Shown in pieces: positions 16,233 through 64,000 of a stretch of DNA of 64,000 nt. The stretch comes from an uncultured delta proteobacterium (lineage in GTDB: Bacteria; Desulfobacterota; Desulfomonilia; UBA1062): NCBI GenBank assembly GCA_963798485.1, contig CAWCTR010000017.1, forward strand, positions 32,001 to 96,000, read 5' to 3'. Within the stretch, counting starts at the first letter, position 1, and every line of letters begins with the position of its first letter. Under the pieces are notes generated by a model. That model was given only the letters and a program-made list of their open reading frames with translations, was not told where the DNA came from and made no database searches. A program made the translations under genes and the position numbers.

Positions 16233-16435
16233 CAGTAGTAGGATCTTACCTTGCTCATTTTCTTTACTGCTCTCTTCCGGGCTGCAATGGCCTTGCGTTT
16301 CTTCTTTACGCTGGGCTTTTCGTAGAATTCCCTCTTGCGTACCTCGGAGAGAACACCCGCCTTTTCCACCTGCTTTTTGAAGCGCTTAAGTGCTCCCTCA
16401 AAAGGCTCGGTCTCTCTTACTTTAATTCCGGGCAT
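16232..16435 (-). CDS. rpsU: 30S ribosomal protein S21
   Basis: [45 protein letters not shown] at 16435. Confidence 0.97.
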
Positions 16436-16544
16436 GCGTTGATCAAACACCCCCTCTCTGTGTGGCTGCTCTGTACAAGAAGCAGATTGTATATAGAAAC
16501 CCCCTGGTACTGTCAAGCCATTATGTTTTATTATTCGATAGTGA

Positions 16545-44097: not shown

Positions 44098-44724
44098 GTG
44101 CGCCGGGAGACCGGCAAGGAGTAAAGGGTGAAAGTCCCACACAGTAAAGGAATAGCAAACCATACTGGCCCCGAGACATGCGCGGTGTGTCGTGAGGCAC
44201 CACGTGATGCGTTGACAGGGGTGCGCATAGGCCAGCCATCGAGCCGCGAAAGATCTAGAGTCCAGGGTGCCGACGCTGGCGCAGTAGCGGAAGGCAACAC
44301 GGACAGGTGCGATAGTGCGAGTACCTGGACGGCCCTGCGTGGTCTGAGAACCTGGCATGCACGTACGCTCCTTGATCGGGAACCGGGAGATCTCCGCTTG
44401 ACCACAGATTTAAAGTGGCCCGCATTGGGAAGGTGAAGAGCCGAAGCCAATGATGAACGAGCAGGAGAAGTCAGCCCCCTCCATATTAGCTGAGAAGCCG
44501 ACGAACAAACAAGGGCAACCGAGTGCGGAGCCGGTGGAGCGAAGGAAGGGGGGCCAAGGGGAACTCGGGAGAGACCCGCATGCGCCGGGGAAGTGTGCCC
44601 CAGGGACTTGATCGAGTACGGCAGATAACGTTTCTTCGACTTGCCGTCAATCACCCAAGGTGGGAGCCCGGTGCGTGAATTGCGCCCGCCGGGATCAGTG
44701 CGGGGGGAGCATCCCTACCGCGAT
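44098..44724 (+). mobile_element. ORF-less sibling group II intron fused head-to-tail to the first
   Basis: Starts GTGCGCCGGGAGACCGGC immediately after the first intron. 5' ribozyme part is near-identical and most of the ORF is deleted. DV bulge is AC to CC and DVI has a 12-nt deletion. Confidence 0.92.
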
Positions 44725-45037: not shown

Positions 45038-45412
45038 ATGACGAAGGTCTTAACGTTTCTGGCAGTACTAATATTACCCCTCTTTCTATGTGCAATGACC
45101 CCACTCACAGAATCTGATATGTCCAATGCTAGCACTCCTTTCAGCTTAAACATCATTATTGATAATATGATGGGTATCAATAATGGCTCCAAAACTTGGT
45201 ATGATTCTGGTGTTTTTAGCAAATTTAATCTAAGTTGGAATGTTGACCTCTATCTAGATAAAAGCAATGGCGAGACCATAGAAACTCAAGAAACTAGTAA
45301 AGACATCTCCGACCCACTTTTGTGCTGGGGTCAAGGGTGGTTTGACAATCTTCAGTCCTTTCTACAGGACTTTTTCAATAATCCATTTAATTTGAACAAT
45401 TACTTTCATTGA
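45038..45412 (+). pseudogene. DUF6160-like secreted protein, truncated by IS insertion
   Basis: Signal peptide and AMTPLTESDMSN motif similar to 58995 and 62284. The stop codon lies inside the IS end. Confidence 0.65.
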
Positions 45413-46752
45413 TGTCCGGTTAAGGATTTGCATGTGATTGATCCTTGTTTGACGGTTGATAGTACCAGGCGCCGGTTTGATTTACAATATCCTCGATACT
45501 CATTTCGTTGTGGATATTGATGGATATTTCCCGAAGACGTTTGACGGAAACCTTTTCTCGATGGTGGTCATGGCAGTAGATGGCCAGGAGGATATAGGTG
45601 ATCAGTCCGGCCAGCATCTGGACCATCAATCCGTATTTGCTCCTTGAAATAAGGTGGTAAACCTTCAGATGTCGTTTCCACCAGCCGAAGAAGATCTCGA
45701 TGTTCCACCTGAGCTTATAAGCGGAGGCAATCTGTTCGGCTGTGAGATCGTGGCGATCGGTGGCTATCCAGTAATTGACGTTCGTTACCCGATAGCCGAC
45801 CAGCCGGAGTTCCCTTTCTGTCCGATTGATACCGGGAGTCCCAAGAAGAACTACGGCGTCGTAAAAGATTATACTGTCGAGTTGAACGTCATTCGTTCTT
45901 ACGACAATTTTATCCGTGGAGGCTTTGATCCGGCAGATAAAATGCTTGCCGTCAGCTTGCCAGGTGTCAAAGAGCTTATGGCTCTGGTAGCCTCGATCCA
46001 TGACGCCTGTTTCCCCCGAAGCCAGAATCCTCTCGACAAAAGGCCGTTCCGCCTCTTTGCCGTCGGTGAGGAATATTTTTTTGGGAATGCCGCAATTGAG
46101 ATCGAAACCGATATGAACCTTGGCCTTTTTCGAGCCATTGCGGTAGTCGGCCCAGTACATGGACAACACAGCATCAATCAGGGAACCATCGATAAGGACC
46201 AGATCTCCTAACTCAGCATGTCCCTTGGGTAAATGTTTAGCAGCCTTTGCATAGAGCTTCCCGAACATTTCCATCATCTGCTCCAACCCACGTGAGCTGA
46301 TGTCCTCGAAGAAGCTGCTCTTTTCAATACCGCCCACGGGTGCGATGTGCTGCCGGGCAAAATGTTCTTCCTTCAGAACCTGTAGGAGGTGACGTCCTGA
46401 ATGGTGTTCTTCCAGATGGAAATACACCAAGATGTTCAGCTGATCTTCAAAAGACATTTTCAAGGGTCGGTTGCATCCCGAGAGCAGGGGGGTGATTTCG
46501 GGCAATATGTCGTTGACAGGTGTCATAAGGGTGTCGTGGGTTTTGTGTTTTTCCTTGGGTTTTCCTGGCATCCACGTGTAGGGCATGAGCAATTCCTCCG
46601 TAATAATAGATAGTTACAGAAAAATCGCCTCCCTATGTGCCCGATATGTCAAGAGATATCTGCACACGGATGCATTTTTTTCACCAAAACAAAACGAATA
46701 CGATGAACCAAAATATTAAGGGTTTATGCAAAATCCTAACCGGACATTACTG
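45407..46752 (-). mobile_element. IS4 family element, no target duplication visible
   Basis: Imperfect TIRs CATTGATGTCCGGTTAAGGATTTGCA / TGCAAAATCCTAACCGGACATTACTG. Confidence 0.9.
45420..46586 (-). CDS. IS4 family transposase
   Basis: LIDGSLI, VMDRGY and YKLRWNIEIFFGWWK (YREK motif). Confidence 0.94.
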   Translation of the reverse strand: MPYTWMPGKPKEKHKTHDTLMTPVNDILPEITPLLSGCNRPLKMSFEDQLNILVYFHLEEHHSGRHLLQVLKEEHFARQHIAPVGGIEKSSFFEDISSRGLEQMMEMFGKLYAKAAKHLPKGHAELGDLVLIDGSLIDAVLSMYWADYRNGSKKAKVHIGFDLNCGIPKKIFLTDGKEAERPFVERILASGETGVMDRGYQSHKLFDTWQADGKHFICRIKASTDKIVVRTNDVQLDSIIFYDAVVLLGTPGINRTERELRLVGYRVTNVNYWIATDRHDLTAEQIASAYKLRWNIEIFFGWWKRHLKVYHLISRSKYGLMVQMLAGLITYILLAIYCHDHHREKVSVKRLREISINIHNEMSIEDIVNQTGAWYYQPSNKDQSHANP

Positions 46753-47232
46753 AAAGAAAATAAGATATGATATTCTCATTAATTTATTAATTTTTACTGT
46801 AAGATTATATTTTCATTCTATTTCTTAGATTAATTCGGTTCATATTTTTTAATCTAAATTTAATCTCAAGGTTCTTACTGAGCTTTCTACTTGAGATGTT
46901 AGCACAGGTCTAAGTTATCATTAACAATGAATAAATTAAAATCTTTTGGGGGGAGAGGAAGATACTATTAGATATATGATTACTTAGGTTTAGATGGCTC
47001 TTTTACCTATCGAGGGGTCTAACTTTTAAACTTTTTATGAGATAGGGCTTAAGATTAGGAATAAGGGATAAGTATAAAAGTTAGGAAGATGGTCAGATAC
47101 AGAGAATTGGCTGCTTCTATGTTCAGGATCAATCATGGTTATACAACCCAGATAACGCTCAGTTGGCCTTTCCTGAAACAATAGATTATATTTCGCTATC
47201 TCTAGTAGAGGGTAAGGAGATGGGGCCATTGA

Positions 47233-47907
47233 GTCGAGTAGCCCGGGGGAATCTCACCCCCAGGCCCTCACAGAACCGGACGTGAGACTCTCACCTCATC
47301 CGGCTCCTGCCGTCCAGTCGTCTGTAAAGAACATAACGACTTTACCTTATCCATAAGCTCCTCCCATTGCTGGTTGACTCACGAACAAGGTCGGACAGCT
47401 CAGCCCCTTCGCTCCATCCGCATTACCGGACTTCATCACTACTACGGACTGATCCGCCCCTGCGCTCTGCATCGGTACTCTCGTCTTCATGGGTCCTCCA
47501 CTTCGACTTGTCCCTTAGCATCAGAGCGCCAGGTTCCCACGTTCCGCATGAAAGCCCAAACCAGGCTCGCGCCACCTTTCTGCCGGCCACCATCTGGGCA
47601 GTAAACAGGTTTCCCCCAGACTTTGTCCCGGACCCGATAAAGGAGCCCGGTTTCGATGACGTCTGTATCTTTTCGACAGCTTATCAGTGGTTCACTCACG
47701 TTCGCCTTCCTGGTTCTCACCTGACGAAGTCTTGCCTCGCCTTTTCCTGGACCGCTCACCACCTGGGATCTTATCCCCACGCAGCGCCAGGCGGTTTGGG
47801 ATCTGATCCTGTAACCCGATCCCGAGGGGCCTCCCCTCATCTTCCATGCAGCATGGCTGCTCCAATGTAGCCCTTTCAGGCTACCTCTTCGCGCCTTCGT
47901 GGCGCAC
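47233..47907 (-). mobile_element. ORF-less group II intron with apparently intact ribozyme (resembles class D)
   Basis: Minus-strand 5' GTGCGCC. DV GAGCCGGATGAGGTGAGAGTCTCACGTCCGGTTC and DVI ending TACTCGAC. Residual RBS plus ATGGATAAG. EBS1 TTTATC pairs with exon end GATAAA. Boundaries are supported by the empty homologous site at 57342/57343. Confidence 0.9.
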
Positions 47908-48220
47908 TTTATCGAAGTTATCAATGCTCTGGGGAGAGCGAAGATCATAGTCAGAAACATTCAGTTATCAATAACTGTGTCCTATAGAGTATGTACTTAT
48001 TTTCACTTTTATTCCTGAAAAATTCCTCATATTTTTTATATCATTGTTTGCCCTCATCTAACTATCAAATTTGATTAATATATTGCTCACAACAATTATG
48101 GTATAAAATGTGCATATTTTTTTAGTAGTTTATTCTATTATATGCTAGAATAGGTTTATTAATAAGCATTAATAAGCTAAGTAGCATAATGAAAATGGAT
48201 TTGTATGCAGAGGGTATCGA

Positions 48221-48724
48221 ATGAATAGAAAGAACCTCTTTATTGCAACTATGCTATTGACCGCAATACTTATCCTCCCTCAGACGGGATCAACTAACAA
48301 AGGCCCTTTGAACGATACTGAGTTATGTGATGTCATCGGCCAGGAAGGGTCTATTGTAGAAACAACTATCCCCATTAACATTCATTTTGACAATTTGAGT
48401 GAGTTAAATGGTGTATTGAATTTCCATGATCTAAATTTCCAAGGTTCCATAACCACTAGGGATTCCTCTACGAGCATAACTAATGCCTATGAAATAGCTG
48501 ATCTTATCTTTCCTTACACCGGAATGTTTAGTTTTGGACTGGTACCTCTTGAGTCTATAGGAAAAAACCCTCAGCAATTTGATATGACCATCAAAATCGA
48601 TGACTTTTCAATTGGCGCCATTCAACCAGGAAATGCCGTCAAAGGCCCCGGCTTTGGTAGTGTTCAGATGAGTGGAGGAGTTATAAATTTCAAAGGAACA
48701 CTAATACCGGCTACTTCTCATTAA
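48221..48724 (+). CDS. Short DUF6160-like secreted protein
   Basis: Signal peptide followed by PLNDTELCDVIGQEG (cf. D..LS.VTGQAG). Confidence 0.6.
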   Translation: MNRKNLFIATMLLTAILILPQTGSTNKGPLNDTELCDVIGQEGSIVETTIPINIHFDNLSELNGVLNFHDLNFQGSITTRDSSTSITNAYEIADLIFPYTGMFSFGLVPLESIGKNPQQFDMTIKIDDFSIGAIQPGNAVKGPGFGSVQMSGGVINFKGTLIPATSH

Positions 48725-48766
48725 GAATAATTGATTCCAAGCAACCCAGATAAAGTAGAGGTCATG

Positions 48767-48834
48767 TGCCAAACTGCGGTGTTTGAAATATGATGCTACA
48801 TGTGTAGATTTCGTGCCATCAGCAATGCTTTGGC
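48767..48834. repeat. About 70-bp imperfect palindromic element, copy 1
   Basis: TGCCAAACTGYGGTGTTTGAAAT...ATGTGTAGATTTYGTGCCA shared with 51255-51323. Confidence 0.55.
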
Positions 48835-48850
48835 CAATCCGAATATTTGT

Positions 48851-49317
48851 CATTGATGTCCGGTTAAGGATTTGCATGTGATTGATCCTTGTTTGACGGT
48901 TGATAGTACCAGGCGCCGGTTTGATTTACAATATCCTCGATACTCATTTCGTTGTGGATATTGATGGATATTTCCCGAAGACGTTTGACGGAAACCTTTT
49001 CCCGATGGTGGTCATGGCAGTAGATGGCCAGGAGGATATAGGTGATAAGTCCGGTAAGCGGAGGCAATCTGTTCGGCTGTGAGATCGTGGCGATCGGTGG
49101 CTATCCAGTAATTGACGTTCGCCACCCGATAGCCGACCAAGCGGAGTTCCCTTTCCGTCCAATTGATACCGGGTGTCCCAAGAAGAACTACGGCGTCGTA
49201 AAAGATTATACTGTCGAGTTGAACGTCATTCGTTCTTACGACAATTTTATCCGTGGAGGCTTTGATCCGGCAGATAAAATGCTTGCCGTCAGCTTGCCAG
49301 GTGTCAAAGAGCTTATC
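48851..49317 (-). pseudogene. Partial second copy of the 45407-46752 IS4 element (3' end, internal deletion)
   Basis: Near-identical to about 45407-45979, with a deletion after GGTGATAAGTCCGG. Confidence 0.92.
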
Positions 49318-49713
49318 GAGACAACTCTTCTGGAAAATCTTTTCCTAGGGGAATAGGAAATAATTTCCACTTTCCTTAACCCTGGGCAGTTCATATATTA
49401 TAACTTGATAGAATTATATATGTTATTAATTGGCATGCTCGTTGCATATTAAATGTATAAATATATTAAACATGATGAAAGGATGAATTATGGCAATTCG
49501 AGGAAGAAAACCACTAGATCTGAGAAACAACGGTACGGATACAAAGCTTATAAAAAGGAATTATTATTTAGAAGAGCGACTTACAAAGGCTCTTACCGTT
49601 CTTTCCGCATTGACCGGAAAAGAGCTTTCTCTTCTCGTGAATGAGGCCATCGTTGAACTGGTTCATAAATATCAGCCGAAGACAGGTATCGACTTGCTCA
49701 ACTTGGAAACAAT
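49318..49713 (+). repeat. About 400-bp near-identical duplication (promoter plus RHH gene), partner 57389-57784
   Basis: Direct sequence comparison. Confidence 0.92.
49431..49446 (+). promoter_or_regulatory. Sigma-54 promoter of RHH copy 1
   Basis: TGGCATGCTCGTTGCA (GG-N10-GC). Confidence 0.75.
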
Positions 49714-49729
49714 AAATAAAGAAGAATAA
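49490..49729 (+). CDS. Small ribbon-helix-helix-like protein, copy 1
   Basis: Strand KRNYYL, helix EERLTKALTVLSALTG, helix LSLLVNEAIVELV. AAGGA RBS. Confidence 0.75.
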   Translation: MAIRGRKPLDLRNNGTDTKLIKRNYYLEERLTKALTVLSALTGKELSLLVNEAIVELVHKYQPKTGIDLLNLETINKEE

Positions 49730-49791
49730 AAATTATTAGTTCCTCGCCGCTTGATGCGAGGGGGTTCAATCTTTCTCGACCTTTTTCAAGT

Positions 49792-49998
49792 TTATTTACA
49801 GTGAACACTAGTTTTGTACTTTTGAATAAGAAGGATGATCGCCTCATTCACGAGGAGAGATGGCTCTTTCTCTGTTAAATTAGATAATTCCCCAATAATA
49901 TCATCATAACGTTCTTCAATATAAATGGGCGTTTTAATCAATTTATTGCCCCGATCATAATCTTTCAGATAAATCAGCTTTTCTGCTTTTTCTCTCAT
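49792..49998 (-). CDS. Diverged RHH-like paralog convergent on copy 1
   Basis: KLIKTPIYIEER...LSNLTEKEPSLLVNEAIILLIQKY aligns to copy 1. GGAGG RBS. Confidence 0.7.
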   Translation of the reverse strand: MREKAEKLIYLKDYDRGNKLIKTPIYIEERYDDIIGELSNLTEKEPSLLVNEAIILLIQKYKTSVHCK

Positions 49999-50037
49999 TG
50001 CAACCTCCCTACATAATTTTCTTCTCTTGACCTGACG

Positions 50038-50129
50038 TTTAATCTCTTTCGGGTCAATCTCTCGAAGCTTGCTTCGTATCTCAGATGATGAAGTACTAAT
50101 ACCTCGCAGCTTGCTGCGTGGTAGTTCAT
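50038..50129 (-). repeat. IS200/IS605-derived miniature palindromic element
   Basis: Hairpins CGCAGCAAGCTGCG and CGAAGCAAGCTTCG, ending GAGATTAAA. Confidence 0.6.
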
Positions 50130-51025
50130 GAACCTGATGCTTAATAGAGTATTGTTAGTGTTCTCTGAATCGAGCAGGAACGGGAGAGATTAATTAGGGA
50201 TTTCCTTATATTCTATAAAGATACACCACTTCTAAATAAGGAATTTCGCCCAATGCATCAAAGAAAGGTAATATAATCATATGCAAATATTGTGCTAAGT
50301 ATGGATTAAAATTAAACATAATATAATAACAATAAGTTAATTTGATATTGTTATCAATTGGCACCCAACACACTGATCTTTATTCCATTATAGTGGTAAT
50401 TGTTTTCTATTATTATCCAAATAAATTCCATGTCTATATATTTTGAGAGTTATACACTATGTGCAATTTTTTTTGCCGGTAAGCTCAAAACCCATCAAAT
50501 TTGGACCATCCAAACACAAGCCCAGCCTAGATAAAAAATCTCACATTGTAGGGCATTTTACGAGGCCGTTTTTTATCATTTTTTTTATCATTTGAGTTTT
50601 ACGACAGCCTCTTTGGAGATCATCGGTTTTGAGGCATTCTAAAACCGAGAAGATATCGAAGAGATCTCCACTATCGAATAATAAAAGGAATTCATTTTGT
50701 GTTCGATGCCCACCCATGACATGTAGGGGATACTACTGTGGTCAAGTTCCCTTATAATATTAATGATTTAATAACTAATACTTAAACGATTTCAATATTC
50801 ACTTTGTCCTTAAGTGTATTTAAATATATTATATATTCAATGGTTGATTATTATTTATCATTATTGAGGTTGCTCATAGTATATCTATTTTGAGGTTGCT
50901 TTTAATTTATCAATTATGATATAATAGCAATAAAGATGATCTATGGAGGGATATACATGATTCTGCCGAGATGATTTTCGAGGTAAGAATCACAGATTGA
51001 GATACCTTAGGATTGGGGGTACATT

Positions 51026-51229
51026 ATGAATATTGCATGTCCTTTTCTCAGGAGAACTATCGATACTAAGGACTTCGTTGCCACTGATTGTGTATTAGAG
51101 CAGTGTAAGCTCTGGAATACAAAATATAGAGAATGCTGGATGATAACCAGTGGGAGATCAATTTCAGAAGAAACCACATTGTCACAATTCAAACATAGAC
51201 CTTCTATGAATACTGGCTCGGTTCTGTAA
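51026..51229 (+). CDS. Small Cys-rich hypothetical protein
   Basis: CPF...DCVLEQCKLW.....C pattern. Confidence 0.5.
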   Translation: MNIACPFLRRTIDTKDFVATDCVLEQCKLWNTKYRECWMITSGRSISEETTLSQFKHRPSMNTGSVL

Positions 51230-51254
51230 AGTCAGACAATTAAATTAGAGATCT

Positions 51255-51323
51255 TGCCAAACTGTGGTGTTTGAAATTAGATCCCCTATGTGTAGATTTT
51301 GTGCCAATCGCCACGGTCTGACA
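51255..51323. repeat. About 70-bp imperfect palindromic element, copy 2
   Basis: Arms TGCCAAACTGTGGTG / CGCCACGGTCTGACA. Confidence 0.55.
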
Positions 51324-51438
51324 TAAAGTGTATTCCTGCATAGGTTTCGAACCAAGATCATCAGCACGAATACATCATAAAACCGAAATCAAGTTTATAT
51401 CCGCCTGACCCGGTTTACATATGAATCACATAGTCCTT

Positions 51439-51631
51439 AATCCTTCATCCAGGTCCTATTTATTCAATGGGGAAAAACGCCGAATCGGCGTTTTTTGTAT
51501 AAGTGCAAGAATGCGGGTCATACCTAACATCTCAAATAACCGACCTATATTCGTCCTGAGCAAGAGTTCAATCATGACCTCACCCACAAGGATAGAAGGG
51601 GCAATCAAAACCGCTCCTGCTCGAATAAGGC
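51439..51631. repeat. About 190-bp dispersed repeat with terminator-like hairpin, copy 1
   Basis: Similar to 55634-55825. AAAAACGCCG-AAT-CGGCGTTTTTT. Confidence 0.85.
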
Positions 51632-51660
51632 AATCTTAATCAGTTCCCGCCCTCCACACA

Positions 51661-51791
51661 TAAAAAAATCAGGCCCTATGCAGGCCTGAAAAATGAGGAG
51701 GTTCTATGGGGAATGAATCTTGAAGAACCTACTATTTTCATCGGCGTGAATCGGATTTGCATGAGTATGGTTATGATCAACCGGGTTCTAT
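51661..51791. repeat. About 130-bp structured element, copy 2
   Basis: Homologous to 22100-22228. Confidence 0.7.
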
Positions 51792-51936
51792 AATGAAAAA
51801 GATGACATTGTCTTATTGTTATTCTATAAAGACAATAATGCTCAAACCACAGCAAGAGCAATTCTTCATGAACTCAGCTCATTAATACGGGACTGAGCAT
51901 GATAGTCGGTGGTTTGGTAAATACGAGGAGGGAATC

Positions 51937-52212
51937 ATGACAAAATCGGATCTGGTTGATGTAGTTGCTAATAAGGCAGGACTACCAAAGGCAAAGGTCT
52001 CAGACGCAATCGATGCAATTACAGATGCGATCCAGGGCGCTCTCAAAAAAGGCGATAAGGTTACCCTGGTTGGTTTCGGGACCTTTGAAGTCGCTAAAAG
52101 GGCTGCCCGTACAGGTGTGAATCCTCGCACAAGAGAGAAAATAAAGATCAAAGCAAACAAAGTACCTCGGTTCAAAGCAGGAAAAGCATTGAAGGATGCT
52201 GTAAAGAAATAG
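51937..52212 (+). CDS. hup: DNA-binding protein HU
   Basis: MTKSDLVD, VTLVGFGTF, RTGVNPRT and VPRFKAGKALKDAV. Confidence 0.96.
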   Translation: MTKSDLVDVVANKAGLPKAKVSDAIDAITDAIQGALKKGDKVTLVGFGTFEVAKRAARTGVNPRTREKIKIKANKVPRFKAGKALKDAVKK

Positions 52213-52477
52213 TCATATATAAGTTCTGCCCCCCTTGCCACATCTGGCCTTCCTCCCAGGTATGTCAGGTGTGGCGATTTTATCTCTTTGGTTCATCCCA
52301 CAAGTCATTTCCAAAATAACGCACCGCTGTTCGTTTTTTTAGTCATCATTCCACCTATCATTCAAGCTGAGAAACAGATAAAGAATAGTATAGTGATGGA
52401 TATCGATCCTGAGATGATCGGTCTCCACACAGATTAACTGACCATTCAGGCATGGGTAATGTCGATTGGTGGATATT

Positions 52478-52630
52478 ATGTCAACAAAAGAAGGTGTAGC
52501 TAACCATAAAATCCAGATGGAATGCTTTTGGTGTATGTATAAGTGGACTCATGTATATATCAAGAAAACGCCGCCACGGAGAATTAAATGTCCCAAGTGT
52601 GGCAATATTATTAAGGTAATTAAACGCTAA
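52478..52630 (+). CDS. 50-aa zinc-ribbon protein (below ORF-track cutoff)
   Basis: MSTKEGVANHKIQMECFWCMYKW...IKCPKCGNIIKVIKR, with two CxxC pairs. Confidence 0.6.
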   Translation: MSTKEGVANHKIQMECFWCMYKWTHVYIKKTPPRRIKCPKCGNIIKVIKR

Positions 52631-52691
52631 CTAAAAAATTATTAGGAAAATATATTAATATCTTCCATGATCAATAATCGAGGGAACCAAA

Positions 52692-55616: not shown

Positions 55617-55633
55617 TAATAAGTTATATCTGC

Positions 55634-55825
55634 AATCCTTCATCCAGGTCCTATTTATTCAATGGGGAAAAACGCCGATTCGGCGTTTTTTGTAGAGACG
55701 CAAAGTTGTGGGTCATGCCTAACATCTCAAATAACCGGTCTATATACGTCCTAAGCAAGAGTTCGATCGTAACCTCACCCTTTGGATAGTGGAGCAAATC
55801 AAAACCAGTCCTGCGCGAATAAGGC
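55634..55825. repeat. About 190-bp dispersed repeat, copy 2
   Basis: Homologous to 51439-51631. Confidence 0.85.
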
Positions 55826-56037
55826 GAAGTTATGTTGATGAGTACATGGGCACAACCTTCATCAATTGCCGGGTATACAAAAAGAATGATCAAGGGCAAT
55901 TGTTACCTACGGATAAAGGAATTGCCCTTAATGATTGGTGCATCGACAAAGTCATCGATGCCCTCATGAAGGCAAGGAAAGTATTGAGGAATAGCGATAG
56001 CCTTCAGAAGTTGGTTCCTGGATCAAAGGCGGATTAG
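55789..56037 (+). pseudogene. PC4/YdbC-like ssDNA-binding domain, probably 5'-truncated
   Basis: VDEYMGTTFINCRVY.......LPTDKGIAL PC4 pattern. The N-terminal codons lie within the 190-bp repeat. Confidence 0.6.
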
Positions 56038-56058
56038 GACCTACTAGCAGATGATTTG

Positions 56059-56424
56059 TTATTGGTCGGTATCTGAAGCCAATCTGCTTAGGGCAAGAAG
56101 TGATGCCTGGTCAAGATTCCTCATAGTGTTGATGAGCTTTTTAATCTCGCGGTTGTCCTGATCCATGAACTCGATGCCCATCCCTTTCCTGGGCGCACAG
56201 TGGACGACCTTACCTTCCACATAAATGACTTTTCCCTCGTCAACCACATCCAGGGTCATGCGTATGATCTCGCCGCATTCTAAAGTGTGAGAAGATTCAA
56301 TGTGTAGACCGCTGATGCCAATGTTTGTCACCGTGCCCTTCAGAATTTTTCTTTTGTAGTCCTGATATCTGGCCTCGATCTTTATTGGGTTCCTGGTATA
56401 ACGCCTTTTGTCTTTTACTTTCAT
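56059..56424 (-). CDS. PilZ domain protein
   Basis: DKRRYTR (RxxxR), NIGISG and GMGIEF. Confidence 0.88.
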   Translation of the reverse strand: MKVKDKRRYTRNPIKIEARYQDYKRKILKGTVTNIGISGLHIESSHTLECGEIIRMTLDVVDEGKVIYVEGKVVHCAPRKGMGIEFMDQDNREIKKLINTMRNLDQASLLALSRLASDTDQ

Positions 56425-56729
56425 GCGTACACTTTTACCTGAATTCTATTATCACTTATGATTTTCGTCAGAACCCTTCCCATTCTTTAACAACATTTAT
56501 TTATAAGAGACTACAGAGTGACTTATGCAGTTTTTCTCATTTCTAACTTCTGTTGGATACAAATTCCTGATGATCCTACAGCCCTTGAATAAGATTCTCA
56601 CACTATGTTGGACAAGTGTAATAAAATGTCACAATTGGATGAAGCAGTGGCTACAAGGGTTTTGCAGGTTAAGTTATCGATCATATAATGCCGATAGGGC
56701 GATAATATACACTAAAGGAGATATAATTT

Positions 56730-57131
56730 ATGGCATTTGTGAGATACACTAAATCAATTAAAAGCTATTTACCAAAAATTTCTATATGGAAAAGAGGACA
56801 GATAGGCTTCAACCAAGGGGCAATTGCAAAATGCAATCTAATTGATTATAAATACGCAATACTTTTCTATGATGAGGATGAAAAGAAGATTGGTATACAA
56901 TTTACAAACGACCCATCTGAAAAAGGTGTCATTAAAATCGTAAAGGCTAAAACAGGGGTCTCTATATCGGCTAAAAGTTTTCTAGGTATATACGGATTAC
57001 TGCATGATAAAACTATTAACTACAATGTTTATTATGATGAAAATAACAAGTTATACATAATTGACCTCAAGGAAAAGGATCACGTACTATCCAATCTTTT
57101 AGATGTTCCACAAGAAGCTTTTCCCTCTTAA
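56730..57131 (+). CDS. Hypothetical protein (AT-rich)
   Basis: AAGGAG RBS and a 133-aa ORF. No motif recognised. Confidence 0.7.
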   Translation: MAFVRYTKSIKSYLPKISIWKRGQIGFNQGAIAKCNLIDYKYAILFYDEDEKKIGIQFTNDPSEKGVIKIVKAKTGVSISAKSFLGIYGLLHDKTINYNVYYDENNKLYIIDLKEKDHVLSNLLDVPQEAFPS

Positions 57132-57500
57132 AATGATTAAAGGTTGATGTAAACTTGATTGATACATGGACTGAGAAGTAGCGGGGTGTCAGATAGTAAC
57201 AGGAAGAGATATTTTAGGGCTGCTTCTTTCTCTGGGGCATTAATACTTGTTCTTCTTAGGTAAGGTTTATTTGGAATGAGAGCAATAGCCATAGATTATA
57301 TTACGATATCTCTGGTAGAGGGCAAGGAGATGGGACCATTGAGTTATCGCAGGTATATTCAAGAGCGAGGCTACAGATCTAGGAACTGAGACAACTCTTC
57401 TGGAAAATCTTTTCCTAGGGGAATAGGAAATAATTTCCACTTTCCTCAACCCTGGGCAGTTCATATATTATAACTTGATAGAATTATATATGTTATTAAT

Positions 57501-57516
57501 TGGCACGCTCATTGCA
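57501..57516 (+). promoter_or_regulatory. Sigma-54 promoter of RHH copy 2
   Basis: TGGCACGCTCATTGCA matches TGGCAC-N5-TTGCA exactly. Confidence 0.8.
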
Positions 57517-57559
57517 TATTAAATATATAAATATATTAAACATGATGAAAGGATGAATT

Positions 57560-57799
57560 ATGGCAATTCGAGGAAGAAAACCACTAGATCTGAGAAACAA
57601 CGGTACGGATACAAAGCTTATAAAAAGGAATTATTATTTAGAAGAGCGACTTACAAAGGCTCTTACCGTTCTTTCCGCATTGACCGGAAAAGAGCTTTCT
57701 CTTCTCGTGAATGAGGCCATCGTTGAACTGGTTCATAAATATCAGCCGAAGACAGGTATCGACTTGCTCAACTTGGAAACAATAGAAAGAGAAAATTAA
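57560..57799 (+). CDS. Small RHH-like protein, copy 2
   Basis: Identical to copy 1 except for the last residues. Confidence 0.75.
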   Translation: MAIRGRKPLDLRNNGTDTKLIKRNYYLEERLTKALTVLSALTGKELSLLVNEAIVELVHKYQPKTGIDLLNLETIEREN

Positions 57800-57961
57800 C
57801 CTGTACGCTTTGCCAATATTGAATATTTGTAACCGAAATCTTCGCTCTGCTATGATCCAGATGAGATATTGATATTTAAAAAGTGATCAAATAATCACTC
57901 CTCATCAAACACAGAGAACCAGCCTACACCATCCAGATGCAAGCTGGCTCTCTGCCTATTC

Positions 57962-58075
57962 CTACTTAACCATACCCAGTATCGTCCCACCGACCTTTTT
58001 AAGCTTGTAGCTGCTGTCCGCAGGCAGCCCGTTGAACTGGACAGCCTTTGTATAAGTGTTTATGACTTTGAACAT
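57962..58075 (-). pseudogene. 37-aa ORF resembling the C-terminal end of DUF932-type proteins
   Basis: MFKVINTYTKAVQFNGLPADSSYKLKKVGGTILGMVK. AAGGAG upstream and a hairpin downstream. Family recalled from memory. Confidence 0.4.
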
Positions 58076-58357
58076 ATTATTCTCCTTCCGAATCTCTCGA
58101 TAGGATGAACGCTGACCTTATGGTTAATCCTTCAAGTCCAGGATTCCTGAAAAATTTGAAAATATCCTCAACCATGTTATCTCAATGGTTAATATATATG
58201 GATGTATGGTTTTATCTGAATGAATAGATGGAATGACCTGAGATGATTAGAAGATAGATATTTGCGTAGGGAGCTTCCATCCGGCTACTGGAAAGTTCAT
58301 GATTATCCCAAAACATCAGCTAGTTACGTTATCAAGATAAATTAATATAAAATATAC

Positions 58358-58472
58358 TTGACATTATTATATTATCAAGTTATATTAATATAAAACATAG
58401 TCGGCATCGATTTGTTATTGTGAAATAATAATATAAAATATAGTTTACATCGACTTGTTATTGTGATATAAA
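58358..58472 (+). promoter_or_regulatory. Two sigma-70-like promoters overlapping a 43-bp direct repeat
   Basis: TTGACA-17-TATATT (58358-58386) and TTTACA-17-TATAAA (58444-58472). CATCGAYTTGTTATTGTGAWATA occurs twice. Confidence 0.6.
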
Positions 58473-58544
58473 GATTGATAGATGATATCAATGCTTATAG
58501 CATCTGAGATATATAACTATTATAATGAAAATAAATTATTAGTA

Positions 58545-58904
58545 TGAGGATTCTGGCCATGTCACTGAGATCAAAAGTACCATTTCATTGGTGGGTTTCT
58601 AGACAACCTTCAAAGAATGAGTCCTACTTTGCGGGGGACTCATTCTTCGAAGGTTTTATCGAAAAGAGGTGGTGCTTGTGTCTTTAGTTCAACAATTCAG
58701 CAAAAACTACAATGGTTATATATTTTTATATTGGTGTGAGGATTCTGGCGCCATGGCACTTGTTCAAGAGTACCATTTCATTGGTGGGTTTCTAGGCAAC
58801 CTTCAAGGAATGAGTCCTACTTTGCGGGGGACTCATTCTTTGAAGGTTTTGTAGAAAGGAGGTGGTGCTGGGGCCTTTAGTCCATTAATTCAGCAAAAAA
58901 TACA
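58545..58904 (+). ncRNA. Tandem duplicated structured leader element (2 copies of about 165 nt), candidate cis-regulatory RNA
   Basis: Copies at 58545-58711 and 58737-58904, each with an about 21-bp stem (58605-58655 and 58798-58848). Confidence 0.55.
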
Positions 58905-58948
58905 CATGATTCTTGACGGCAAAAGGGAAACTAGGACTGTAACGTAAC

Positions 58949-58980
58949 AATTACTGATAGGTAAAATTACTGATAGGTAA
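58949..58980 (+). repeat. Perfect 16-bp tandem repeat before the RBS
   Basis: AATTACTGATAGGTAA twice. Confidence 0.9.
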
Positions 58981-58994
58981 AAGGAGCAAATGTC

Positions 58995-60269
58995 ATGAAG
59001 AGAGTATTTGTATTTCTGGCAATAATGATACTGCCCATGTCAATATGGGCAATGACCCCGGTTACAGATTATGATCTATCTAATGTAACCGGTCAGGCTG
59101 GCGTGAACATCAACCCTAACATCTCAATGAACATCTACATCGGAACTATGGCCTGGGGCGACTCAGATGGTATCACAGGTATTTACAACCCCTGGATAGT
59201 CCCTGCCAACTCTAGCGGTGGTTATATCGGGATAGCAAACTTCAACCTCAGCAACCTCACCATAGAAGAACGAATGGAGTCTACTGACAACTACGGCGGC
59301 TATAATACCATGATGGTGAAGCCGATCACCATCGACGTGGCGACCGTCAATGCCCCGTTGTCAGTAACCACCATTCCTTCTTGGGGTGGGGCTGTTACAA
59401 CTGAGAACTTGGCCTCTGGCACGACATTTGTCCGTTTCGGCCTTGGCGCTCTTGAGATATCAGTGGGATCGATGTCGTTTGATATCAATCTGTACAAACG
59501 CACCGGTCCAGTGGCAGCGACGGATGATATAAATACAGCGAGTGCACAGAACCTGGGCGATGTCGAGATTGGTTTGTTCTCTATGTACATCAATCCCTGG
59601 AGCTATGTAGACATTTACTCTGCCTCAGGTAATGTTGCAGGCAACACCTCAGGCGTACAGTTCGCTGTGAATGTAACCATTGACAAGCTCGACTTGACCT
59701 ATATTGGATGGAGTGACGAAGATGGTTTAACTAGCGGAGTAAACGCCACATCAGGACAAACTATTGGTAAGGTTACTGCCACAGACTGGATGAATGATAA
59801 AGCAGCTGGTTATATCGGACTCACCTCACTCAATGTTGGGTCCATCGCCATCAACGGGACAGTAGGCATTGATATTAACACCACCACGAAGGGTATCTAT
59901 GCCCAGCTCCCGATGATTCTAAGCGTAATTGGAACCCCGATTTCTCAATCAGCGTTCGAGAGTGCGCTCGCAACAGATGGGTTCTTCCAATACAATACTG
60001 CTGGGACAATAGTGAATGGTACGGCCCTGGGCACTTTAATGGGTCAACTTGGAATGGCTACTACAGCTAATCCTGTCACTGTGGTCCACATCTCCTTCCC
60101 GACCGAGTTCATGATTGATGTCGGCGGACCTGTCACAGCAGCAGTTCAGCTGTCTAATGCTTCTAACTTTGCAGCCGGTGCTGGAACGACAACCCTTGGT
60201 GACATCTATCTGTCACACTTCGGGTTTGATATTCATGCTGGTAGCTGGGTAGACATTTGGGCCCACTAA
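58995..60269 (+). CDS. DUF6160/FilA-like secreted protein
   Basis: Signal peptide, AMTPVTDYDLSNVTGQAGV, AWGDSDG, beta-rich G/T/N composition and C-terminal SWVDIWAH. Confidence 0.8.
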   Translation: MKRVFVFLAIMILPMSIWAMTPVTDYDLSNVTGQAGVNINPNISMNIYIGTMAWGDSDGITGIYNPWIVPANSSGGYIGIANFNLSNLTIEERMESTDNYGGYNTMMVKPITIDVATVNAPLSVTTIPSWGGAVTTENLASGTTFVRFGLGALEISVGSMSFDINLYKRTGPVAATDDINTASAQNLGDVEIGLFSMYINPWSYVDIYSASGNVAGNTSGVQFAVNVTIDKLDLTYIGWSDEDGLTSGVNATSGQTIGKVTATDWMNDKAAGYIGLTSLNVGSIAINGTVGIDINTTTKGIYAQLPMILSVIGTPISQSAFESALATDGFFQYNTAGTIVNGTALGTLMGQLGMATTANPVTVVHISFPTEFMIDVGGPVTAAVQLSNASNFAAGAGTTTLGDIYLSHFGFDIHAGSWVDIWAH

Positions 60270-60281
60270 TTTAGTCACTCT

Positions 60282-60322
60282 TGAGAAAGGAGGCCGGGTA
60301 AACCCCGGTTCTCCTTTCTTTC
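60282..60322 (+). terminator. Intrinsic terminator
   Basis: AGAAAGGAGGCCGGG...CCCGGTTCTCCTTTCTTT. Confidence 0.8.
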
Positions 60323-60922
60323 GAATGAATTGATATATGATATTTAAATCTGGCCTATAATTTAAACGATAATGTGATGCAAACCATATATGAAAGGTAT
60401 AAGATAGGTAGCCAGAATTGTAATGCTCAATTCATGGAGCTCGAGCCTCCAGAAAAGAGATGGGAGAGGGAAATGTCCCTCTTCTTTTTTTTATAAATAT
60501 GTATAAGAATATGAAGCATCAGCCTGACTGAATATCAGGTGAGTAGACGGGGTTCTCCTATGGCTGCGGGTTGAGATTTGTCTTCTCAGTTTCCGCCTGG
60601 ATTCCCGGCGGTGCCACAATCATCGGAGCAAACAAGAAGGTTATAATAGAAGCGTCGATAGATTCGTTCCCTCAATCTGTAGCGGCTATTAAAATGTACT
60701 TACCCTCTCTTAAGACAGATGTCTGGTTTTGTGCAAATGACCAAGCAAAGGTCAAGTTGAGCACAAAGAGCTTGGCATGCTTTCTATATGAGATCTTGTC
60801 TATACCCACCAAGGCAAACTGGCAATGAAAGACTCTCAAGGCTATTTGAAGTCTATGCAATACGACACCACACAAATCAGCACGTAATCAGTTCATTCTA
60901 TGGGAAGATCACTTCGCCACAA

Positions 60923-61130
60923 TAAGTTATTGTACTTGACATTAATATTGATTGCGTTATAATGATATATAATATACTGTGCTAAAAATACTATTCTGAT
61001 ATTATTATAAGGATATGTTCATGAGGTAAGTTATTGTACTTGACATTAATATTGATTGCGTTATAATAATATATTATACACTATGCTAAAAATTCTATTC
61101 TGATATTATTATAAGGATATATTCATGAGG
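60923..61130 (+). repeat. 104-bp tandem duplication of promoter, RBS and start codon
   Basis: Units 60923-61026 and 61027-61130, each with TTGACA-16-TATAAT. Confidence 0.92.
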
Positions 61131-61979
61131 ACGGATAAGAGCACAAGAGATCAGCTTTTAGTCGAGCTTGAACGAGCCAACAGAAGAATAACAGAGCTGG
61201 AAAATTCAGCTCAGAAAACTTTGCAAAAATATGATGATCTCCTCCGTATCCACTTCTCACTATCTAACGATGTCATGTACTCTTATGATCACAGATATAC
61301 ATTGACGTATGTATCACCGAATGTTGAGCGAAGACTCGGCTATAAACCCGAAGATCTGATCGGTAGAAAAATTTATGATCTGCTGGAGATTCTAGACCCA
61401 TTAGATCATGATGATGTTATTGAAGATGCATCCCACGCACTTTCAGGACATACCATCCTGTCTTCCATCTACAGATTTATAGCTAAAGACGGATCAATGA
61501 AGTTTGGTGAGGTTAGTAGTGTTCCCCTTATTCGAGAAGGCAAGGTTGTTGCTGTCATTTCTGTAGCCAAAGAAGTAACAGGGCGGGCAGCAAATGAGAA
61601 GTCTCAGGATAAAAATATAAGGGATAAGATAAGCCACTTAAGTTATAGAGTGAGTCCACAGGTTTTTCTGGATACTGCTGGTATTGTATTAGACCTGAAT
61701 GAAGGAGCTGCCGAGATTTTTGGTAAGAGCATAAATGAATTGGTGGGCTCGTCAATATTTCATCACACATCGGAAAACTTGGCAAAAAAGAGAAAGCTCA
61801 ACTTTGATAGAATCAAATCATCAGGCCAATCAGACAGTTTCTTAGAAGAGTATGGGGGGAGAATGTTTTATAACACACTATCCCCTGTTTGTGATGAGAA
61901 GGGTAATGTTTCAAGGATTGAGTTCAATATTCAGGAGCTGAGCGGGAAAAGATTTACTCAAACAGACGCTACTCATTAA
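61125..61979 (+). CDS. Two-PAS-domain protein without output domain
   Basis: RIHFSLSNDVMY..., paralogous to the N-terminal leader and last PAS domains of 52692..55616. Confidence 0.85.
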   Translation: MRTDKSTRDQLLVELERANRRITELENSAQKTLQKYDDLLRIHFSLSNDVMYSYDHRYTLTYVSPNVERRLGYKPEDLIGRKIYDLLEILDPLDHDDVIEDASHALSGHTILSSIYRFIAKDGSMKFGEVSSVPLIREGKVVAVISVAKEVTGRAANEKSQDKNIRDKISHLSYRVSPQVFLDTAGIVLDLNEGAAEIFGKSINELVGSSIFHHTSENLAKKRKLNFDRIKSSGQSDSFLEEYGGRMFYNTLSPVCDEKGNVSRIEFNIQELSGKRFTQTDATH

Positions 61980-62035
61980 TAATAGCGTCTTTGGTGCAGT
62001 GGATAAAATGTGCACCTAGCTATACAAGTTCCATT

Positions 62036-62237
62036 AAGTAGCAATTAATTTTTGTTCAATTTGAAACTTTCTGGCTAACCTTAAGTAAAGTAGCAATTAA
62101 TTTTTGTTCAATTTGAAACTTTCTGGCTAACCTTAAGTAAAGTAGCAATTAATTTTTGTTCAATTTGAAACTTTCTGGCTAACCTACTGAAGCATTTCAG
62201 TATTTTGATGTTCTGAAACTTTCTGGCTAACCTACTG
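62036..62237 (+). repeat. 52-bp tandem repeat (about 2.9 copies plus a partial fourth)
   Basis: AAGTAGCAATTAATTTTTGTTCAATTTGAAACTTTCTGGCTAACCTTAAGTA at 62036, 62088 and 62140. TGAAACTTTCTGGCTAACCTACT recurs at about 62215. Confidence 0.93.
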
Positions 62238-62283
62238 GAGTATTATAGTAGCTAAAAAGAATTTAAAAAGGAGAACATCACAA

Positions 62284-63672
62284 ATGCTTAAGATTATATG
62301 GAGAACACTTACAAAGAGATCATTGACGATTCTGACTATTCTTCTCCTTCCCCTTCCAGTATGGGCAATGACCGCGGTTAAAGATATAGATCTATCTAAT
62401 GTAACCGGTCAGGCTGGCTTGAACATCACCGTCGACGTGTTAATGAATGCCTCTATCAAAATCATGGCCTGGGGCGACTCAGATGGTATCAATAATACCA
62501 CTAGTTACAACCCTTGGACCGTACCTGCCGCCTCTAGTGGTGGCTATATCGGGATAGCAAACTTTAACCTCACCAACCTCACCGTAGAAGAACGCACGGA
62601 TTCTAGTGACAACTACAACGGGTATAACACCACGATGCTGAAGCCGATCACTATCGATGTGGCAACCGTGAATACCGCGTGGACAATAACCACTACTCCT
62701 TCTTGGGGTGTACCTGGTGTAACACAGAATATTCCCGCTGACACGACAATTGTCCAAGTTGGCCTTGGCGCTCTTGAGATATCAGCGGCATCGATGAAAA
62801 TGGATGTCAATCTGTACCAACGCGCGAATGGTGTAGCGACGAATAATATCGCTCTAGATACTGCTCAGAACCTGGGTGATGTCGAGTTGGGTGGTTTATC
62901 TATGTACTTCAACCCCAGGAGCTATGTTGACATTTACTCTCCTGCTTCGGCTGGGGGAGCCAACCCTTCAGGCATACAGTTTGCTGTGAATGTAACCATT
63001 GACAAGTTCGACTTGACCTATTTGGGGTGGAGTGACGAAGATGGTATTAAAAACCCAATAGTAGCAGGAACACGATCAGGAAAGGGGATTAATAAGGTTG
63101 CTGCCAACGACTGGATGAATGATAACGCACCTGGTTATATCGGTATCACCTCACTAAATGTTGGGACCATCGCCATCAACGGGACAGCAGGCATTGGTGT
63201 TAACACGTCCGCGAAGGGTCTCTATGCACAACTCCCGGCGTTGTTAAACTTAATGAGTGGAGCTACGGTTAATGGTTATGCTGTTCCTAGTCAATTCTAT
63301 ACGAGTGAATCAACGTTCGAATTAGCGCTCAAAGGGGTAGGTTTTAGTCAATACAACGGTTCAATCTCTGGTAACACTATCATCACTAGTGGAACTATTG
63401 CAAATGGCCAGCCCCTGAACGCCTTATCTCGTGATTTATTATATAGTGATTTAGGTCTGTCTACTACAATCAATCCTGTCAGCGTGGCCGAAATCTCATT
63501 CCCGACAGAGTTTTTGATTGATGTTGAAGGAACTGTCACAGCAGCTGTTCAGCTGTCTAATGTTTCTAACTTTGCAGCCGGTCCTGGAACTACAACTCTG
63601 GGTGACATTTATCTCTCACACCTTGGTATTGATATCCATGCTGGCTCCTGGGTAGATATATGGGCGCACTAA
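62284..63672 (+). CDS. DUF6160/FilA-like secreted protein, paralog of 58995..60269
   Basis: AMTAVKDIDLSNVTGQAG, AWGDSDG and SWVDIWAH. Confidence 0.8.
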   Translation: MLKIIWRTLTKRSLTILTILLLPLPVWAMTAVKDIDLSNVTGQAGLNITVDVLMNASIKIMAWGDSDGINNTTSYNPWTVPAASSGGYIGIANFNLTNLTVEERTDSSDNYNGYNTTMLKPITIDVATVNTAWTITTTPSWGVPGVTQNIPADTTIVQVGLGALEISAASMKMDVNLYQRANGVATNNIALDTAQNLGDVELGGLSMYFNPRSYVDIYSPASAGGANPSGIQFAVNVTIDKFDLTYLGWSDEDGIKNPIVAGTRSGKGINKVAANDWMNDNAPGYIGITSLNVGTIAINGTAGIGVNTSAKGLYAQLPALLNLMSGATVNGYAVPSQFYTSESTFELALKGVGFSQYNGSISGNTIITSGTIANGQPLNALSRDLLYSDLGLSTTINPVSVAEISFPTEFLIDVEGTVTAAVQLSNVSNFAAGPGTTTLGDIYLSHLGIDIHAGSWVDIWAH

Positions 63673-63715
63673 CCCTTAAATATATTAATATATTAAACAT
63701 GAAAGGATGAAAATT

Positions 63716-63955
63716 ATGGCAAATCGAGGAAGAAAACCAATGACTCTGAGAAACAACGGTACGGATGCAAGGTTTATAAAAAGGAATTATTATTTAGAAG
63801 AGCGACTTACAAAGGCTCTTACCGTTCTTTCCGCATTGACGGGAAAAGAGCTTTCTCATCTCGTGAATGAGGCCATCGTTGAACTGGTTCATAAATATCA
63901 GCCGAAGACAGGTATCGACTTGCTCAACTTGGAAACAATAAATAAAGAAGAATAA
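63716..63955 (+). CDS. Small RHH-like protein, copy 3
   Basis: Near-identical to copy 1 including the downstream hairpin. Starts 43 bp after the DUF6160-like gene and lacks the sigma-54 promoter. Confidence 0.75.
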   Translation: MANRGRKPMTLRNNGTDARFIKRNYYLEERLTKALTVLSALTGKELSHLVNEAIVELVHKYQPKTGIDLLNLETINKEE

Positions 63956-64000
63956 AAATTATTAGTTCCTCGCCGCTTGATGCGAGGGGGTTCAATCTTT

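Follow-up and report, generated by a model that had tools for sequence, protein, structure and literature searches.

DUF6160 genes in an insertion-sequence-rich region of an uncultured deltaproteobacterium: probable orphan paralogues of Fil-type fibre subunit genes

The stretch of DNA analysed here (hereafter the window: 64,000 nucleotides, C17:32001-96000) comes from the 4.3 Mb genome, in 32 contigs, of an uncultured delta proteobacterium. It contains four genes related in different degrees to the protein family DUF6160, which lie among genes for RHH-like, PAS-domain, PilZ and HU-type proteins. Do these genes together form a surface-filament system with its own regulators, as was proposed in a first-pass annotation made from the letters of the window, or do they belong to a system whose machinery is encoded elsewhere? 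Our analysis answers in favour of the latter: the DUF6160 genes of the window are orphan subunit paralogues, because the operon with the machinery sits on another contig, C14. We further consider it probable that these are paralogues of Fil-type fibre subunit genes, served by the machinery on C14, and that their neighbours in the window are passengers of an island.

DUF6160-type genes of the window and their family

Every open reading frame (ORF) named in the first-pass annotation is present at its coordinates on the plus strand (Table 1). Of the four genes to which a signal peptide and an N-terminal motif had been ascribed, two encode clear members of the family: the long proteins of 424 and 462 aa, which are 66% identical to each other, pass the gathering cut-off of Pfam DUF6160 (PF19657; 27 bits, whole-protein score). 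The 167-aa protein stays under this cut-off (22.1 bits, E 1.9e-4); it is 41% identical over 162 aa to a paralogue of 190 aa on contig C7. The 124-aa remnant has no Pfam match at E <= 0.1. The subfamily from which it derives has a signal peptide plus MTPLTESD.SN..; the GQ.G half of the motif is missing there as well as in the remnant, which resembles its paralogues over the first ~65 residues only (40-65% identity). That it is truncated and partial had been recognised correctly: the ORF stops where an IS4-type repeat begins (45406), and its full-length relatives measure 224 aa (L043:453-1127, in the ~11 kb that follow the window) and 241 aa (L044:7855-8580). For signal peptides, lipoboxes and ribosome-binding sites we relied on inspection by eye; by this measure both long genes have ribosome-binding-like purine runs, and a terminator-like hairpin follows the 424-aa gene at 60292-60310.

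The likeness to the Acinetobacter filament protein FilA, which had been pointed out in the same annotation, is found in the N-terminal ~85 residues and does not extend to a full-length match. With the NCBIfam model pilus_FilA (NF050077, cut-off 220 bits) the two long proteins reach 33.4 and 39.9 bits, at model positions 6-87 of 279 only. The protein-atlas clusters nearest to the long form are likewise DUF6160/FilA, and no window protein matches any of the Fap families in Pfam or NCBIfam. The observation that export machinery is not visible in the window is confirmed: among the window proteins there is no stand-alone C39 peptidase, no FilC-like barrel and no FadL-like FilD barrel.

The long form has many relatives. 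A word-indexed search returned 295 homologues of the 424-aa protein at E <= 1e-3, many of them full-length at ~40% identity, and a profile search of 1.84 billion representatives gave 531 clusters at E <= 1e-3, 258 at 1e-10 and 141 at 1e-30. The homologues are named 'hypothetical' or 'DUF6160 family protein' and come from metagenome-assembled genomes (MAGs) of Deltaproteobacteria/Desulfomonilia; of 301 genomes sampled evenly across the phylum, five have a match, among them all three other members of this genome's family. Seven residues, M20, D25, L28, G33, Q34, A35 and G36, are invariant in all 59 aligned members, and the C-terminal strand SWVDIWAH is near-invariant, its terminal His being present in 56 of the 59. 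The mature 424-aa protein has no Cys, few charged residues and a high content of G, T, S, N and A. Some members of the family, 500-770 aa in length (P0252, P0259, P0261 and others), match the middle of the profile (~100-270) in three to five stretches and are internally repeated forms.

Within the genome, the idea of an expanding family of DUF6160/FilA-type exported proteins is well founded: the DUF6160 hidden Markov model has 11 matches, 10 of them over the cut-off. Long-form copies are intact in four cases (two on C17, one each on C7 and C22); one further copy is shorter or broken (C22), one is split (in the core locus on C14 described below), and short pieces lie on C14 and C30. Further subfamilies share the N-terminal box alone, namely a 224-241-aa type, to which the truncated remnant belongs, a 167-190-aa type, which includes the 167-aa protein, and, in the core locus, a second subunit of ~320 aa and an upstream protein of ~250 aa. 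The four intact long paralogues differ by a dS of 0.30-0.41, with dN/dS of 0.47-0.82, i.e. below one in six of six pairs. Their identity peaks at residues 21-40 and 401-424 and has its minima at 121-140, 161-180, 241-260 and 301-360. These paralogues are recent and have diverged fast in internal patches while both ends stayed fixed, a pattern that fits either diversifying exposed loops or relaxed constraint.

An AlphaFold2 (AF2) monomer model of the 424-aa protein (pLDDT 83.5, pTM 0.74) shows a mainly beta fold that has long hairpins and, at residues 301-351, an inserted helical segment; residues 25-32, within the box, form a short helix. A Foldseek search of the PDB with this model had no match at E <= 0.001. 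One weak match, 9xfv_A ('Pilus-like-alpha', probability 0.30), was considered and set aside; the consulted portions of PMC12956863 give no link to Fil or C39. Sequence searches of the PDB with the A2 alignment profile, the 167-aa protein and the 250-aa protein of C14 found no relative.

A Fil/Fap-like operon on contig C14

The genomic setting of the long form becomes clear from other genomes. In 27 loci from other Deltaproteobacteria/Desulfomonilia MAGs we called ORFs and clustered the neighbours; 26 of the loci have a called subunit ORF (L025 has none), and three ORF clusters (c11, c12 and c19) prove, from where tblastn locates them in our own genome, to be antisense shadows of real genes. 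The recurrent gene order starts with LolA-like and DUF1302 genes, a divergently oriented regulator of 937 aa with six PAS domains and a LuxR domain, and a small outer-membrane (OM) barrel. Genes for a ~300-aa and a ~220-250-aa protein follow, then two to three DUF6160 genes and a Peptidase_C39 gene, and the order ends with a barrel matching Phenol_MetA_deg/FapF, a 560-aa barrel of FadL/TodX type and a PD40 propeller. C39, FilC-like or FilD-like genes occur in 15 of the 26 loci with a called subunit ORF. Eleven foreign loci are flanked by at least 4 kb on each side: six we class as core operons, five of which possess all three of C39, FilC-like and FilD-like genes (L014 is without a called FilC ORF), and the remaining five are orphan loci. 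Orphan DUF6160 copies are normal in this lineage because they account for 5/11 of the well-flanked loci.

The first-pass annotation had suggested looking for a C39 peptidase or an OM transporter elsewhere in the genome, and a complete Fil/Fap-like operon is indeed there, at C14:335312-350179. Its products are a PAS-LuxR regulator, a small OM barrel, a lipoprotein, a motif-bearing protein of 250 aa, two subunits of the DUF6160 family and a periplasmic C39 peptidase similar to FilB and FapD, together with two larger-system barrels, one FapF-like (FilC) and one FadL-like (FilD), and a PD40 propeller; for FilE there is no Pfam match on this operon. The peptidase scores 205.6 bits with FilB (cut-off 475), 120.4 with FapD and 69.7 with Peptidase_C39, the FilC-like barrel 152.6 bits with FilC (cut-off 630) and 52.6 with FapF, and the FilD-like barrel 261.9 bits with FilD (cut-off 970) and 113.8 with Toluene_X. 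Since the NCBIfam scores lie well below the equivalog cut-offs, the fibre system is, as far as its sequences tell, a distant relative of the Acinetobacter Fil pilus; its OM machinery is by the same measure related to the exporter of the Pseudomonas Fap amyloid. The peptidase is of periplasmic type and catalytically complete, with Cys66, His151 and Asp167 invariant in 12 of 12 homologues, and the protein has an N-terminal hydrophobic segment (by eye). Two other core-locus proteins, the second subunit and the upstream protein of 250 aa, have the same D.ELS.V box. The gene of the first subunit is split into ORFs of 242 and 201 aa, with a net +1 base relative to the 424-aa gene (C14:341819-343127; L039:8816-10181, minus strand), which may be a true frameshift or an assembly error; the site is near L039:9400-9450. 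A search of sequencing runs for window 57500-64000 listed no RNA data set, and small shares of this stretch occur in three DNA metagenome runs from one study, whose Logan contigs do not reach the frameshift site.

Membrane proteins with TPR and PMT_2-like domains form a group of ~16 paralogues, 11 of which lie around the core locus (C14:298-366 kb); others are found at C17:4772-7057 and 15625-17448 and on C22, C25 and C4. In other genomes, four of the five orphan DUF6160 loci adjoin such a protein. Possibly the TPR-PMT_2 proteins are glycosyltransferases acting on the subunits.

The combination of subunit and operon suggests a route to the cell surface. Sec would export the subunit. The box behind the signal peptide, MTPV.D.DLS.VTGQAG, would serve as a leader of the double-glycine type, recognised and probably cut by the periplasmic C39 peptidase; the FilC and FilD barrels would then carry the subunit across the outer membrane, and a thin surface fibre would be assembled outside the cell. 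Double-glycine leaders have GG, GA or GS at positions -2/-1, preceded by a spacing of hydrophobic and acidic residues. With Q34 taken as -1, the box has Gly at -2, hydrophobic residues at -4, -7, -12 and -15 and an acidic residue (Asp) at -8, a spacing which we take to be that of double-glycine leaders. The predicted helix in the box and the C39 gene conserved beside the subunits are further likenesses to the leaders known from bacteriocin exporters. Unlike there, the box follows a Sec signal peptide, so that the cut would be periplasmic, and Gln occupies position -1 (unless the cut is placed after A-G), in the place of Gly, Ala or Ser.

The nearest known system is that of Acinetobacter (filA-F; NF050077-NF050080). 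Curved thin filaments of Acinetobacter genomosp. 16 were identified as FilA by mass spectrometry and are called 'a pilus of unknown functions' in the consulted parts of two papers (PMC10980823; PMC11539960), and for Acinetobacter Tol 5 a third paper deduces the presence of Fil fimbriae and FilA (PMC3498257). A literature search on Fil pili found no assembly mechanism or fibre structure, a full-text search for 'DUF6160' gave nothing related, and the portions seen of a paper on Shewanella filaments contain no C39, FadL or FapF terms (PMC13334000). Our system shares with Fil the signal peptide followed by the DUF6160 box and, on C14, the stand-alone C39 peptidase, the FilC-like barrel and the FadL-like FilD barrel. 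It differs in that the long form (330-460 aa) has a body and a C-terminal strand, SWVDIWAH, of its own, in FilB, FilC and FilD scores of about a quarter to under half of the cut-offs, and in the extra genes of the deltaproteobacterial operon, which encode a PD40 propeller, a lipoprotein and a PAS-LuxR regulator; a Pfam match to FilE is absent. In Acinetobacter, FilA was recovered from surface filaments; the window itself has subunit genes only. With Pseudomonas Fap (FapA-F) the C14 operon has the C39 peptidase and the FapF-type barrel in common; in contrast to Fap, the subunits match no Fap family, FapB, FapC and FapE included, they are predicted to form a 40-kDa beta-rich domain rather than Q/N-rich amyloid repeats, and there is an extra FadL-like barrel.

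FapD is a periplasmic C39 peptidase that is needed for secretion of FapC and whose target is given as unknown in the portions consulted (PMC5557850). The long-form subunit, with an invariant box behind the signal peptide and a periplasmic C39 peptidase always adjacent, offers a concrete and testable pair of candidate substrate and enzyme that bears on the targets of FapD-type peptidases. Of main interest are the operon on C14 and this pair of box and peptidase; the window region is mostly island clutter. There is also a lesson for annotation: DUF6160 genes can be orphans, and their machinery must therefore be sought genome-wide.

Neighbouring genes, upstream DNA and rival readings

The genes among which the DUF6160 genes lie are real. 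Pfam confirms the two output-less PAS proteins, the PilZ protein (46.5 bits with PF07238, over the cut-off of 22.5) and HU. The three RHH copies that had been reported are likewise present, 91-97% identical and inside DNA repeats of 289-300 nt, and a fourth, divergent copy has to be added; their scores with Pfam RHH_3 are weak and sub-threshold (13.8-16.5 bits, cut-off 21.6). Some of their homologues carry the NCBI name RHH, and the AF2 monomer is a low-confidence model (pLDDT 63) with two helices only. The RHH family has 157 matches, 60-75% identical, from the same lineage only and multicopy within single MAGs. This genome has 10 copies, six on C17 (81-105 kb) and one each on C9, C25, C4 and C13; none is found on C7, C22 and C14, the contigs of the other DUF6160 paralogues. 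The 974-aa PAS protein has a close PAS-only paralogue on C9 with the same C-terminus, and elsewhere paralogous PAS modules are joined to kinase or LuxR outputs.

If these genes formed one self-contained system, RHH repressors, PAS-only sensors, c-di-GMP through PilZ, and sigma-54 would jointly control the DUF6160 genes. The physical interleaving suggests as much, with one RHH copy directly behind the 462-aa gene, and so do an exact sigma-54 consensus ~1.5 kb upstream of the 424-aa gene, the conservation of a PAS-rich regulator beside the true core operon and a phased palindrome in the 52-nt repeats that could be an operator. Other genomes do not show the linkage, however: tblastn queries with RHH (three forms), PilZ, PC4-like, HU, orf133 and Zn-ribbon proteins gave no match in any of the 27 foreign loci, the 10 RHH places and 8 DUF6160 places of two congeneric genomes have no contig in common, and in a third genome, which belongs to the same family, RHH is without a match. 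The interleaving is therefore particular to this region. The other DUF6160 paralogues of our genome also lie on contigs without RHH, the window lacks machinery, and the 974-aa PAS protein is only ~25% identical to the PAS-LuxR regulators of the core locus (tblastn). As for sigma-54, the exact TGGCAC-N5-TTGCA and its one-mismatch copy each begin 59 nt ahead of the start codon of an RHH gene, as part of the RHH repeat unit; the other eight RHH copies are without the site, no match to the consensus lies upstream of the DUF6160 genes, and at up to two mismatches the window contains 37 matches against 30 expected, i.e. no enrichment. Sigma-54 control had been proposed for the DUF6160 genes, and the sites precede two RHH copies only. 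Thus the DUF6160 match on which the first-pass annotation was built holds, and the conserved linkage with RHH or PAS genes fails; we regard a co-regulated system of this kind as quite improbable.

In the DNA upstream of the long genes, the tandem-duplicated leaders described earlier are evident. Three 43-nt repeats ahead of the 424-aa gene carry a sigma-70-like TTGACA-17-TATATT (58358-58386); behind them come two copies of a unit at a spacing of 193 nt, which align at 90% over 141 nt; the unit folds as a long hairpin (-58.6 kcal/mol, z = -4.0). Ahead of the 462-aa gene stand three 52-nt repeats with the palindrome TTCAAnTTGAA in each unit. A 104-nt duplication ahead of the 284-aa PAS gene has a perfect TTGACA-16-TATAAT in each copy, and its second unit reaches the start codon. 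The upstream DNA of the two long genes does not recur ahead of their paralogues and has no Rfam match; across 39000-64000, Rfam at E <= 1 reports group II intron families only, and no riboswitch or other RNA upstream of the DUF6160 genes. One segment repeats, in inverted orientation (83% over 424 nt), the DNA directly ahead of the DUF6160 gene on C22; here it lies upstream of, and faces, the divergent RHH gene, a sign of recombination among repeats.

Several points count against our reading of the window genes as Fil-type fibre subunits. The similarity to FilA is restricted to ~85 N-terminal residues, and the FilB, FilC and FilD scores on C14 are far under the cut-offs of 475, 630 and 970. In the leader box, G-Q or A-G takes the place of the GG, GA or GS of classical leaders, and it is from sequence that we infer cleavage, export and filament formation for the long-form proteins. 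A dN/dS of 0.47-0.82 is equally expected from relaxed selection on redundant copies. Finally, the structural matches of the AF2 model are OM beta-barrels only, of middling quality (Z <= 9.2, rmsd 6.7 A over 172 residues), according to which the predicted long protein could itself be a membrane barrel.

This last point leads to the alternative that the long DUF6160 proteins are OM beta-barrels or surface-coat proteins, inserted or displayed with the help of the neighbouring barrels. Nearly all listed structural matches of the model are barrels of outer or organelle membranes (NalP with Z 9.2, AIDA-I 8.5, CymA 8.5, FapF 7.6-7.8), and the composition of the mature protein as well as its strictly conserved C-terminal strand would suit a barrel. 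However, according to the structure-search tool such Z values are usual for models without a true match, the root-mean-square deviation is mostly 4-16 A and falls under 5 A only in a few partial matches to BamA, TamA and SAM (129-144 residues), and Foldseek found nothing at its threshold. Genuine barrels encoded in the same operon have W, F or FVM at the C-terminus, in contrast to the His of the long DUF6160 proteins. The FilA-type N-terminus and the operon belong to a system whose Acinetobacter subunit came from surface filaments, and two to three tandem copies plus scattered paralogues suit subunits better than a channel. We consider the barrel alternative unlikely. Alternatively, the window copies might be decaying leftovers of duplication in a junk-rich island, which contribute nothing. 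The remnant truncated at an insertion sequence (IS), the high dN/dS and the patchwork of IS elements, intron pieces and recombined repeats are what decay would produce. Against this stand intact frames of 424 and 462 codons in which the N-terminal box and the C-terminal strand are kept, purine runs, sigma-70-like sites and a terminator-like hairpin, and a dN/dS below one in every pair. In addition, the core-locus copy of the same subunit appears frameshifted, and therefore intact copies would matter. Complete loss of function is, in our estimation, highly improbable.

A bolder reading is that the scattered copies constitute a repertoire of subunits for a single export machine. If the major subunit gene of the core locus is truly broken, the composition of the fibre would then be set by island-borne copies such as the two in the window; each copy would have its own promoter, and tandem repeats that vary in copy number would lie upstream of it. 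In this uncultured anaerobe the surface fibre would thereby undergo phase- or antigen-like variation, and each subunit type might also be paired with one of the ~16 TPR-PMT_2 paralogues. We consider this extension of our reading unlikely.

The island and its other features

Housekeeping genes such as rpoD, dnaG, mutS2 and rpsU lie at 1-39 kb of the window. From ~39 kb the GC content drops from about 0.53-0.58 to 0.37-0.48, with the exception of the group II intron stretch at 42-44 kb (0.53). The low-GC stretch contains IS elements, a group II intron with reverse transcriptase, a truncated second intron copy, ORF-less intron pieces and a GDSL lipase with a dockerin. Its island character extends ~11 kb past the window, where IS110, IS200 and DDE transposases and two further RHH copies are found besides the 224-aa DUF6160-motif gene mentioned above. 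At the far end of this IS-rich region lies a tRNA-Asn gene (L043:11899-11972, C17:107899-107972); none of the eight ORFs scanned beside it is an integrase. In our reading, this variable region, which reaches the tRNA-Asn gene, is what the RHH, PAS-only, PilZ, PC4 and HU genes belong to, as do the IS elements, the introns and the upstream DNA that is duplicated; all of these are lineage-specific multicopy modules without a conserved link to the DUF6160 genes.

Table 1. Features of the window from the start of the island; positions are those of the window.
Feature	Position	Strand	Remarks
GDSL lipase	41087-42097		C-terminal dockerin type I domain; island start
Group II intron, first of three copies	42223-44039		with reverse transcriptase
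Group II intron, second copy	44131-44650		truncated duplicate
Truncated remnant, 124 aa	45038-45412	+	from the 224-241-aa DUF6160-motif subfamily
IS4-type DDE transposase	45420..46592	-	PF01609, 77 bits; in DNA repeats
Group II intron, third copy	47233-47838	-	ORF-less pieces; RF00029 + RF01999
Short DUF6160-motif protein, 167 aa	48221-48724	+	apparently full length; separate subfamily
Partial second IS4-type copy	48850-49316		by DNA repeat comparison
RHH-like copy 1	49490-49729	+	one-mismatch sigma-54-like site at 49431-49446
Divergent RHH-like gene	49792-49998	-	45% identity to the plus-strand copies
Inverted copy of C22 upstream DNA	50196-50612
HU-type DNA-binding protein	51937-52212	+	PF00216, 118.5 bits; island passenger
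PAS-domain-only protein, 974 aa	52692-55616	+	island passenger
PC4-like gene	55789-56037	+	convergent with the PilZ gene; pair duplicated on C9
PilZ gene	56059-56424	-	convergent with the PC4-like gene
RHH-like copy 2	57560-57799	+	exact sigma-54 consensus at 57501-57516
Upstream region of the 424-aa gene	58324-58994	+
3 x 43-nt tandem repeats	58324-58452
Unit copies spaced 193 nt apart	58571-58711 and 58764-58904
Long-form DUF6160 paralogue, 424 aa	58995-60269	+	intact; DUF6160 38.4 bits (passes)
2 x 104-nt duplication	60923-61130
Two-PAS protein, 284 aa	61125-61979	+
3 x 52-nt tandem repeat	62036-62191
Long-form DUF6160 paralogue, 462 aa	62284-63672	+	intact; DUF6160 34.0 bits (passes)
RHH-like copy 3	63707-63955	+	begins 35 nt behind the 462-aa gene; lacks an upstream sigma-54-like site

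Two further features were observed in this region. A repeat of 147 nt, 88% identical between its copies, stands ahead of the HU gene (51439-51585) and of the PC4-like gene (55634-55780) and has relatives on C9, C30 and C13 and at other sites of C17. In addition, an ORF of 37 codons on the minus strand (57962-58075) has a purine-rich stretch before its ATG (by eye), and the segment around it is conserved at 74-77% in two other places, C13:12521-12687 and C17:103933-104088.

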